Origin: Aliidongia sp.
Lineage (GTDB): Bacteria > Pseudomonadota > Alphaproteobacteria > ATCC43930 > CGMCC-115725
NCBI GenBank assembly: GCA_035310205.1
Contig: DATGEK010000124.1
Location: 1 to 24,000, forward strand
Reading direction: 5' to 3'
Length of the DNA: 24,000 nucleotides
In this document: positions 9,886-11,011 of the stretch, piece after piece
Layout of the letters: each line of letters opens with the position of its first letter
Position numbering within the stretch: the first letter of the stretch is position 1
Notes under the pieces: generated by a model
The model's database searches: none
What the model saw: the letters and a program-made list of their open reading frames with translations, nothing else
Told to the model about the DNA's origin: nothing
Translations under genes and position numbers: made by a program

Positions 9886-10110
9886 ATGGCATTCCCGACA
9901 GCCGTGAACAATCAGATCACCGACTCCGTGTCGCAGTCCAGCGTGACGGTTCTTGGCGATGCGCCGGGTCTGGCGCTTGCCAGCCTCTATCAGACCATGG
10001 CGCAGGCGACCGGTCTCGCTCTGCAAAACGCCGTCGCCAACCAGCAGTCGCTCGCGGCCGTCAATCAGGCGGCCACGGCAGCGGCCGTGGCACTGCTGAC
10101 CCGCGGCTGA
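9886..10110 (+). CDS. rebB: RebB-family ('killing trait') R-body protein, paralog 1 (74 aa)
   Basis: Internal ATG of track ORF 9802..10110 with GAAGGA about 10 nt upstream. MAFPTAVNNQITDSVSQSSVTVLGDAPGLALASLYQTMAQATGLALQNAVANQQSLAAVNQAATAAAVALL matches the RebA/B/D signature as I remember it (VNSQITD-VTQ-N--VLG-AP--A---YQ...NA--QQ...QAAT). No signal peptide. Only 3 charged residues. Confidence 0.8.
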   Translation: MAFPTAVNNQITDSVSQSSVTVLGDAPGLALASLYQTMAQATGLALQNAVANQQSLAAVNQAATAAAVALLTRG

Positions 10111-10125
10111 CCGGGAGAGCACATC

Positions 10126-10356
10126 ATGGCATTTCCGACATCCGTGAACGATCAGATCACCGACTCCGTCTCCCAGTCCAATGTCACCGTGCTCGGCAAT
10201 GCGCCGGCTATGGCCCTGGGCGTGATCTATCAATCCTTGGCCCAGGCGGTGAGCCTGGCCGCGCAGAACGCCGTTGCCGCCCAGCAATCGTTGGCCGCGA
10301 TCAATCAGGCGGCGACGGCTTCGGCGGTGGCGCTCATCCTCAACGGGAAGTCCTGA
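10126..10356 (+). CDS. rebB: RebB-family R-body protein, paralog 2 (76 aa)
   Basis: GGGAGAG SD upstream; the gene starts 15 nt after paralog 1. About 54 of 74 aligned residues are identical to paralog 1 by my hand alignment. Confidence 0.8.
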   Translation: MAFPTSVNDQITDSVSQSNVTVLGNAPAMALGVIYQSLAQAVSLAAQNAVAAQQSLAAINQAATASAVALILNGKS

Positions 10357-10358
10357 CC

Positions 10359-10712
10359 ATGGCAGAGGATCCCGCGAACGGGCCGGAGCCGGCGACGGAG
10401 ACGCTGCCGCCCGAGGCGATCGAACCCGATGTGGCCGAGGGCGACGCCGGCACAGAGGCTGCGGTGACCGCCGTCAACAGCCAGGTCACCGATACCGTGA
10501 CCCAGGCCAATGCCACTGTCCTGGGCGAGGCGCCGGGCCTGGCGCTGGCGGTCGTCTATCAGTCGCTCGCTCAGGCGACGAGCCTTGCCTTCCTCAACGC
10601 CACCCAACAGCAACAGCAGGCGAACATGATCGCTCAGGCGGCCACGGCGGCGGCGGTCGCCCGGATCCTCCGCGGCGATGCGTCGGTACCCGTGGCTGAG
10701 GGGGGCTCGTGA
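10359..10712 (+). CDS. RebB-family R-body protein, paralog 3 (117 aa), with an acidic Pro-rich N-terminal extension
   Basis: The ATG is 2 nt after the paralog 2 stop, at the 3' end of track ORF 9753..10712. The core AVNSQVTDTVTQANATVLGEAPGLALAVVYQSLAQATSLAFLNATQQQQQANMIAQAATAAAVARIL carries the same signature. It is preceded by MAEDPANGPEPATETLPPEAIEPDVAEGDAGTEAA. Confidence 0.75.
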   Translation: MAEDPANGPEPATETLPPEAIEPDVAEGDAGTEAAVTAVNSQVTDTVTQANATVLGEAPGLALAVVYQSLAQATSLAFLNATQQQQQANMIAQAATAAAVARILRGDASVPVAEGGS

Positions 10713-11011
10713 CCGGGCAACCTGACGTGCCGCCGGCGGTGCCGGTGGGCGATGCCGAAGCGCTGCTGCGGCAGGCGGCGGCCCACGCCGCCTCGCTGGC
10801 GCTGCTCGACGCGGTTCAGCATGTGCAGCGCGTCACCATTCTGACCGAGGCGGCGACGGCGACGGTGTTGCAGCGGGCGATGGCGGGCGAGCAAAAGGGC
10901 CTCGACCCGGCGCTGGAGCCGATCGAGGCGATCCGGGCCGGGGCGCTCGCCCATTTCCAGGCCGCCGGCCTGGCGGCGATCAAGCTGTTCGAGGCACTGT
11001 CGAAAGTGTGA
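10709..11011 (+). CDS. Divergent Reb-like small helical protein (100 aa), translationally coupled to paralog 3
   Basis: Its GTG start overlaps the paralog 3 stop (GTGA), and GAGGGGGG lies upstream. SLALLDAVQHVQRVTILTEAATATVLQ aligns by eye with GLALQNAVANQQSLAAVNQAATAAAVAL of paralog 1. It lacks the N-terminal VNxQITD segment. Confidence 0.55.
   Translation: MTGQPDVPPAVPVGDAEALLRQAAAHAASLALLDAVQHVQRVTILTEAATATVLQRAMAGEQKGLDPALEPIEAIRAGALAHFQAAGLAAIKLFEALSKV

Follow-up and report, generated by a model that had tools for sequence, protein, structure and literature searches.

Positions 1 to 24,000 of contig DATGEK010000124.1 from an Aliidongia sp. metagenome-assembled genome (MAG), hereafter the 24-kb window, hold a cluster of four small co-directional genes at 9886-11011, which we interpret with a probability of about 0.75 as a chromosomal reb operon for refractile bodies (R-bodies) in an Aliidongia-like soil alphaproteobacterium (Rhodospirillales, Dongiaceae). 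Three of the open reading frames (ORF1-3) are identified by sequence comparison as RebB-family paralogues homologous to RebA, RebB and RebD of Caedibacter, and the fourth (ORF4) belongs to a rare family linked to Reb proteins. The Reb ribbon, rolled in the cytoplasm, unrolls at low pH and ruptures membranes (PMC8322103; bioRxiv 10.64898/2026.05.21.725848). The four genes are the following.

reb gene 1 (ORF1), 9886..10110, + strand: ATG start, 74-aa RebB-family protein, core only, without C-terminal tail; Pfam RebB (PF11747) 72.7 bits, E 2.7e-20
reb gene 2 (ORF2), 10126..10356, + strand: ATG start, 76-aa RebB-family protein, close paralogue of gene 1; 78.7 bits, E 3.5e-22
reb gene 3 (ORF3), 10359..10712, + strand: ATG start, 117-aa RebB-family protein with an acidic, Pro-rich N-terminal extension; 71.6 bits, E 5.8e-20
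ORF4, 10709..11011, + strand: GTG start, 100-aa member of a rare Reb-linked family, predicted two-helix hairpin; RebB 15.1 bits, E 0.025

The genes are spaced by 15 nt, 2 nt and a 4-nt overlap (GTGA) shared by the ORF3 stop and the ORF4 start, in agreement with a preliminary description of this DNA that was made from the letters alone. The Shine-Dalgarno site which that description gave to each gene is seen as a purine-rich stretch before all four starts, although the one of ORF3 (GGGAAG, about -15) is weak.

Three RebB-family genes and the polymer that they may form

Membership of the RebB family was decided by the PF11747 gathering score of 24 bits, well below the scores of ORF1-3 (in ORF3 the match spans residues 43-107). 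In BLASTP the same three proteins match RebA, RebB and RebD of the Caedibacter plasmid pKAP298 along the whole core (58-69 residues) with 40-50% identity (E 1e-14 to 1e-17; for ORF1 and RebB, 45% and E 1.7e-17), far more than chance would give, and ORF1 and ORF2 are 73% identical to each other. The preliminary description had recognized the RebB ('killing trait') R-body family and had proposed the Pfam hidden Markov model (HMM) as a check. The significant HMM matches and the BLASTP matches to characterized Caedibacter proteins bear this identity out, and the shared motif on which it was based, VN-x-Q-[IV]-TD...TVLG-x-AP...YQ...AQA...NA...QQ...QAATA, is found in ORF1-3. A search with ORF2 yielded 797 RebB-family homologues, all listed ones with PF11747, and the closest are mostly short Rebs of 73-89 aa. 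The MAG products that match ORF1 (P0018) and ORF2 (P0011) are named 'RebB family R body protein' by NCBI.

Primary Rebs are diagnosed by a (D)QITD motif between two prolines, by a conserved domain 2 Tyr and by NAV and QQ(Q) in domain 3, with charges being few and Cys pairs absent (PMC13430693). ORF1-3 carry a QITD-type motif (NQITD, DQITD and SQVTD, respectively), both flanking prolines (P4 and the AP after VLG), the domain 2 Tyr (LYQ/IYQ/VYQ) and the domain 3 residues (NAVANQQ/NAVAAQQ/NATQQQQQ), and have neither Cys nor Trp. Only three charged residues are present in each of ORF1 and ORF2; ORF3 has 14 D/E against 2 K/R, with an acidic, proline-rich N-terminal extension of ~38 aa, and ORF4 has 17 charged residues. 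The products had been called almost uncharged, which holds for ORF1, ORF2 and the core of ORF3 but not for the ORF3 extension or ORF4. The extension keeps its composition but not its sequence in two related loci (L012 and L023; such handles denote loci compared here), and it is absent from the RebB genes of distant lineages. The AlphaFold2 (AF2) model of ORF2 is a single long helix (residues 6-73) with a predicted local distance difference test (pLDDT) score of 74, and the PDB contains no sequence relative with a solved structure for either the RebB or the ORF4 family. At least three reb homologues together were taken as a potentially functional cluster in a recent survey (PMC13430693); here three RebB genes lie within 830 nt.

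Several properties of these proteins weigh against an operon for classical R-bodies. The charged C-terminal 'domain 4' of RebA, RebB and RebP is missing from all three Rebs: ORF1 and ORF2 stop 2-4 residues past the core, and the tail of ORF3 is only ~10 aa. In the type 51 system of Caedibacter, RebA and RebB make up most of the structure and extension depends on them, RebD is a minor subunit that nucleates, and RebC is an assembly factor that is needed for roll formation but not incorporated; RebD and RebC alone give non-extending rolls (bioRxiv 10.64898/2026.05.21.725848). The KxxxD/E electrostatic motif has Thr in place of K in ORF1-3 (VTVLGD, VTVLGN, ATVLGE). In a 29-sequence alignment this position is K in 17 and T in 7 proteins, and since the motif is described as a signature and not as absolute, its missing K is a variant feature of ORF1-3 and no ground for exclusion. 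According to the 2026 survey, R-body formation is unconfirmed in most reb-carrying taxa (PMC13430693).

These same observations, namely three Rebs of RebD length without domain 4, the type 51 precedent in which actuation takes both RebA and RebB, the T for K and the scarcity of confirmed R-bodies, are what would be expected if the RebB polymer were not a classical pH-extendable R-body here but a static roll, a sheet-like inclusion or some other helical polymer with a different role. We consider this improbable. Short Rebs dominate the closest homologues, and tail-less clusters are common and may be functional; Azorhizobium caulinodans makes R-bodies though its Rebs fall outside the RebA/B/D clades; and the acidic extension of ORF3 together with the second helix of ORF4 could supply the missing function. 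For the proposed reb operon, rolls formed from these Rebs are plausible, but their pH-driven extension is not assured, because the Rebs are RebD-length without domain 4 and have Thr at the K of KxxxD/E.

Conservation of the cassette and its chromosomal setting

The cluster is flanked on its 5' side by genes for an aldehyde dehydrogenase (ALDH; 8047-9582, -) and a crotonase (7236-8030, -), and on its 3' side by genes of a tripartite ATP-independent periplasmic (TRAP) transporter, DctP (11205-12218, +) and a fused DctQM (12172-14115, +). Among the scanned ORFs of the window there is no sigma factor, Crp-type or cyclic-nucleotide-binding regulator, integrase, transposase, phage or plasmid gene. 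The ORF scans therefore corroborate the genomic context as first described, with ALDH and crotonase on one side, the transporter on the other and no regulator or mobile gene adjoining. The order TetR - HutD - PAS_5 - OmpA-like - crotonase - ALDH / three reb genes and ORF4 / DctP - DctQM is seen again in no fewer than two other diverged lineages (L012/L020-22 and L023/L024), of which L023 also keeps an aquaporin gene and lacks PAS_5. In L023 the ORF4 orthologue and DctP are kept apart by a 696-aa Abhydrolase_10 gene (8967-11057, -), from which it is seen that reb cassette and TRAP operon can be separated.

Comparison with orthologues gives ratios of nonsynonymous to synonymous substitution rates (dN/dS) of 0.24-0.26 for ORF1, 0.18-0.21 for ORF2, 0.20-0.32 for ORF3 and 0.27-0.42 for ORF4, at a dS of 0.45-1.4 between the three lineages, and all four cassette genes are under purifying selection. 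The reb genes of sister lineages share 57-82% amino acid identity versus 88-93% for the flanking crotonase, ALDH and DctP. The GC content at third codon positions (GC3) of ORF1 and ORF2 (0.79-0.82) is slightly under that of their neighbours (0.86-0.92), and the overall GC of the cassette matches that of its surroundings, with no base-composition sign of recent import.

It is very improbable that the cassette is an island of mobile or phage origin that was acquired recently, landed between housekeeping genes by chance and has not become integrated with the biology of its host. Such an origin would fit the wide horizontal spread of reb clusters (PMC13430693), the match of ORF1-3 to the phage protein family phrog_32040 (function not assigned; E 1e-14 to 1e-16), from which it follows that RebB-like proteins occur in phage or prophage genomes, the slightly lower GC3 of ORF1 and ORF2, and the much greater divergence of the Rebs between lineages than of the flanking ALDH and DctP. 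It is opposed by the same four genes standing at the same insertion point in three lineages at the synonymous divergence given above, by an overall GC like that of the surroundings, by purifying selection on all four genes, and by the scan of window ORFs, in which no integrase, transposase, tRNA or repeat boundary was found.

ORF4 represents a rare Reb-linked family

With 15.1 bits ORF4 stays below the RebB threshold. The preliminary description of a four-gene R-body operon is apt as a description of the operon; by the family threshold only three of its four genes are RebB, and it left the nature of ORF4 unstated. BLASTP of ORF4 against Caedibacter RebA, RebB and RebD gives no significant match, it matches nothing meaningful in Pfam, NCBIfam, PHROGs or PADLOC, and the identical GenBank entry from the Aliidongia sp. 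MAG is named 'hypothetical protein VKQ29_18260'. When 1.84 billion representative proteins were searched exhaustively with a profile, only 18 clusters were retrieved at E<1e-3; in a cluster look-up these are mostly unnamed metagenomic proteins plus one from a Caulobacter MAG. Members are ~100-180 aa long and share the motif L-x-D-A-[AV]-Q-H-[LV]-[QR]-R-T-x-x-L-V-E-A-A-T-A. A locus scan with a subset of the family alignment found one genome locus and seven metagenome loci only.

ORF4 is a real gene, because its orthologues in two other lineages show a dN/dS of 0.27-0.42 and AF2 predicts a confident hairpin with helices at 13-58 and 69-99 (pLDDT 90). Its relationship to RebB is remote. In hhalign the ORF4 family aligns with RebB over the RebB central helix (probability 76-77%, E 2e-5), the same region that the Pfam model also picks (profile positions 20-57), and the N-terminal QITD domain is missing in ORF4. 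Weak but reciprocal HMM matches tie the two families together. Comparison with long-form RebBs counts the other way: the match shrinks to the central helix at a probability of 17%.

The genomic linkage was followed in eight lineages with context: the Aliidongia-like clade, Caulobacter sp. AP07 (L004), L010, L011, L016, L017, L018 and L019. In seven of them the ORF4-family gene lies directly 3' of a RebB gene on the same strand, usually after 1-2 nt or with an overlap. The contig of the eighth, L019, ends just upstream, and a partial ORF resembling the RebB C-terminus precedes the ORF4-family gene. In three of the eight the locus consists of one RebB and one ORF4-like gene alone.

These data, taken together, allow us to propose with moderate confidence that ORF4 is an accessory protein that arose from a Reb and diverged, with a distant relationship to the core helix of RebB. 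Two closer assignments were rejected. ORF4 is not a homologue of RebC (hhalign probability 0.06% against the reconstructed Caedibacter RebC), nor is it a RebA/B-like protein that keeps domain 4, with which its second helix does not align (against long-form RebBs the probability of the match falls to 17%). It is very improbable that ORF4 stands outside the R-body system, whether as an ORF that high-GC DNA throws up spuriously or as a small downstream protein without relation to it. Long spurious ORFs are common at the 67% GC of the window, the four family databases are silent, and a Foldseek search of the PDB with the ORF4 model returned only generic helical hairpins (all E > 0.3); however, the selection on the gene across lineages, the confidence of its model, the reciprocal HMM matches and the adjacency to RebB genes in unrelated contexts, including Caulobacter sp. 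AP07, all argue for a member of the system.

A more specific and tentative proposal, which we hold to be possible but not probable, is that the proteins of the ORF4 family are partners dedicated to the R-body and not described before. The family would have derived from RebB by losing the QITD domain and gaining a second helix, pair one-to-one with the upstream RebB, and act as a nucleator, cap or assembly chaperone. A point against any such role is that it is argued from linkage alone. If the proposal is true, two genes, one for RebB and one ORF4-like as Caulobacter sp. AP07 has them, would suffice as a minimal R-body system.

Other genes were noted around the loci of this family. A crotonase gene (ECH_1) occurs within ~5 kb of the RebB and ORF4-like pair in four different contexts (window 7236-8030, -; L016 6852-7649; L017 5653-6441; L019 455-1252). 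A functional link to the ORF4 family is unsupported, and the recurrence may be coincidence in paralogue-rich alphaproteobacteria, because the recurring proteins are just 31-36% identical to the crotonase of the window. At 881-5332 of L018 (GCA_024449895.1, contig JAANSX012649552.1) a sigma-54 activator gene stands ahead of three RebB genes, an ORF4-family gene of 176 aa and two or three more small ORFs without annotation, an arrangement that would solve the problem of regulation in another way; the very high contig number raises the suspicion that a bacterial contig is here part of a very large assembly, possibly a eukaryotic one. At L016 3417-6838 a LysR gene, a major facilitator superfamily transporter and an extra RebB adjoin the ORF4-family locus, and at L017 1103-3865 the ORF4-like gene faces a convergent 920-aa Trans_reg_C/HTH_77 regulator; no neighbours of this kind occur in the window.

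Comparison with characterized R-body systems

The type 51 locus of Caedibacter taeniospiralis (rebA-rebB-rebD-rebC on pKAP298/pKAP47) is likewise made up of four small co-directional genes, three of them RebB paralogues. In both loci the last gene encodes a tightly coupled helical protein of ~100 aa, and all products are predicted to be alpha-helical. Type 51 is carried by a phage-like plasmid, whereas the Aliidongia locus is chromosomal, has no long RebA/RebB-type subunit with a C-terminal domain 4, and ends with an apparent remote derivative of RebB in place of RebC. On pKAP298 (NC_005915; L003/L015), where the gene order is rebA-rebB-rebD-rebC, rebC (114 aa) begins within a few nt of the end of rebD and crosses the origin of the circular record, which is why it is missing from the PLSDB gene table; the protein used for hhalign was reconstructed across this origin. 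No RebC homologue outside Caedibacter is reported in the literature (PMC3583457).

The reb operon of A. caulinodans (AZC_3781-3788; rebAZC1-4, AZC_3784, rebR) is also chromosomal and alphaproteobacterial, and combines a near-redundant Reb pair with further distinct Rebs. R-bodies of this organism need one of two redundant Rebs, two further Rebs and one non-Reb gene (PMC5527310). The non-Reb gene needed for R-bodies, AZC_3784, follows a reb gene, and ORF4 is likened to it by position and description only. Control in A. caulinodans is by a Crp-Fnr activator, RebR, and a candidate box compatible with that of RebR lies upstream of the Aliidongia cluster; the latter differs in having four genes instead of eight, no rebR and no PraR-type box upstream.

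In Pseudomonas aeruginosa PA14 (rebP1, rebP2, rebD, rapA, rcgA, fecI2) RebB-family genes again occur with a non-canonical partner, RapA, which co-purifies and co-localizes with the R-body (PMC8322103). The PA14 cluster has a linked transcription factor, a sigma factor and the 210-aa RapA (group S4), none of which is present in the Aliidongia window, and its RebP1 and RebP2 (106 aa) are longer than the Aliidongia Rebs.

ORF4 further resembles the secondary Reb groups S1-S4 (Dorr et al. 2026) and the proteins HP1.3/HP1.4 (Raymann et al. 2013) in being weakly Reb-like, poor in motifs and confined to reb clusters. By description S1 retains the motifs of domain 3 alone, which is similar to ORF4. 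Membership of S1-S4 is defined by at least 40% identity to a seed (htRebE, htRebF, htRebG, paRebB); ORF4, with 100 aa, is set apart from the seeds (S1 65, S2 184, S3 113 and S4 210 aa) by lengths and descriptions only. The synteny of Groups 1 and 2 of Raymann et al. (HP1.1-1.4 or HP2.1/2.2, often with a sigma factor and a cyclic-nucleotide-binding regulator) differs from that of the Aliidongia locus, which has ALDH and DctP as neighbours; the HP proteins were compared by description.

A conserved palindrome upstream of the cassette

Two non-coding features border the genes.

Candidate Crp/Fnr-family operator, 9758..9773, no strand assigned: TATGACAAGTTTCACA, TGTGA-N6-TCACA with one mismatch
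GC-rich hairpin after ORF4, 11019..11051, + strand: perfect core GCCGGATGG-ATCG-CCATCCGGC at 11024-11045

The palindrome is located in the divergent ALDH/reb intergenic region, centred 120.5 nt 5' of the ORF1 ATG. It is the only match to TGTGA-N6-TCACA with at most one mismatch in the window, and 16 of 100 shuffles hold at least one match somewhere in the window. At the aligned position L005/6/7/9/12 have the perfect TGTGAAGAGCATCACA, and L023 and L024 the one-mismatch TATGAAAAGTTTCACA, within flanks that have diverged. The form T[AG]TGA-N6-TCACA is conserved ~105-120 nt upstream of reb; after it come an AAAG-TGTG block and, ~30 nt downstream, a TAA, both of them also conserved.

The core GTGA-N6-TCAC is compatible with the outer positions of GTRMC-N4-GKYAC, the box bound by RebR, a Crp-Fnr-family activator of the A. 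caulinodans reb operon (PMC5527310), and Group 2 reb loci often have a cyclic-nucleotide-binding regulator (Raymann et al. 2013). Because the upstream box is conserved and RebR is a Crp-Fnr activator with a similar box, we infer that the cassette may be controlled by an unlinked Crp-Fnr regulator via this candidate palindrome. Three considerations stand against this assignment. The box is confined to the Aliidongia-like clade and was not found upstream of RebB in the distant lineages L004, L010, L011 and L016-18; no Crp-Fnr gene is present among the scanned window ORFs; and the site could equally serve the divergent ALDH operon instead of reb. The earlier view that the locus has no regulator and that its trigger is open is correct insofar as no regulator gene adjoins it, and should be amended by the conserved Crp/Fnr-type box and by the Crp-Fnr activators known for the reb cluster of A. 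caulinodans.

The A. caulinodans operon is also repressed by the transcriptional repressor PraR (PMC5527310); boxes of the PraR type (CAAC-N5-GTTG) occur at chance frequency in our scan, with none in the reb upstream region. A consensus scan of 9400-11400 found no sigma-70-type promoter and no intrinsic terminator, and in the whole window Rfam detects no non-coding RNA family. The hairpin after the last gene that had been reported is indeed present at 11019-11051, but it is not a canonical terminator: it has no U tract, its fold is no better than that of shuffles (z -1.0), and it was not called in the scan. Relatives carry GC-rich hairpins of unrelated sequence at the same place after the last gene, and a terminator function of the hairpin is not established.

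Further genes of the window

An 81-aa ORF at 14206-14451 (+) with a weak XRE/HTH_31-like match is kept just 3' of DctQM in all related contigs. Positions 15583-23378, 3' of the transporter, form an apparent surface-polysaccharide region with two large family 2 glycosyltransferase (GT2) or GT2-methyltransferase genes (15583-18728, -), a pro-kumamolisin/S8 peptidase gene (18690-20954, +) and a gene for a YjbF-family lipoprotein (22704-23378, -). At 475-4098 an OEP and HlyD-type efflux pair is divergent from an AefR-like TetR regulator, which is most simply an efflux regulator rather than a reb regulator.

Proposed mechanism and significance

According to the mechanism that we propose, the small, nearly uncharged, alpha-helical Rebs would co-polymerize in the cytoplasm into a rolled ribbon. 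ORF1 and ORF2 may be two core subunits that are nearly redundant, as rebAZC1 and rebAZC2 are in A. caulinodans, and ORF3 would be a distinct subunit whose acidic, proline-rich N-terminal extension may, speculatively, tune the pH response. ORF4 could serve the RebB whose translation comes just before (ORF3), as a stoichiometric partner or an assembly factor, and could be a functional analogue, not a homologue, of Caedibacter RebC or Pseudomonas RapA. Expression would probably be limited to a subpopulation, via an unlinked Crp-Fnr-family activator acting on the conserved upstream palindrome. The likely role is harm to eukaryotic grazers or hosts once the cells are ingested and acidified. The genus Aliidongia (Dongiaceae, Rhodospirillales) is recorded in surveys of soil, rhizosphere and waterlogged wood.

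The rarity of R-body loci implied by the preliminary description was overestimated. The 2013 survey counted 203 Reb homologues in 64 taxa (PMC3583457), and 671 taxa with reb genes are listed in the 2026 survey, of which 471 have three or more such genes in a cluster, including the Rhodospirillales Azospirillum, Thalassospira, Rhodocista and Inquilinus (PMC13430693). Given the 671 surveyed taxa and the 797 RebB-family homologues of ORF2, the Aliidongia locus is not rare; it belongs to a widespread, already catalogued gene family and leaves the general picture unchanged. The novelty is modest and consists of the ORF4 family and the conserved Crp/Fnr-type box.

R-bodies work as protein pistons actuated by pH and are of interest both for bacterium-eukaryote conflict and for synthetic biology. 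With this locus a compact, regulator-free cluster of four genes is added from a free-living lineage of soil Rhodospirillales. The conserved Crp/Fnr-type box provides a concrete handle on the trigger of reb expression. The fourth gene is what the locus chiefly contributes: a rare partner family of Reb origin, coupled in translation to a reb gene, could help to explain how Reb polymerization is nucleated or controlled in clusters without RebC or RapA, and the two-gene loci of RebB and its partner are possible minimal systems for engineering.

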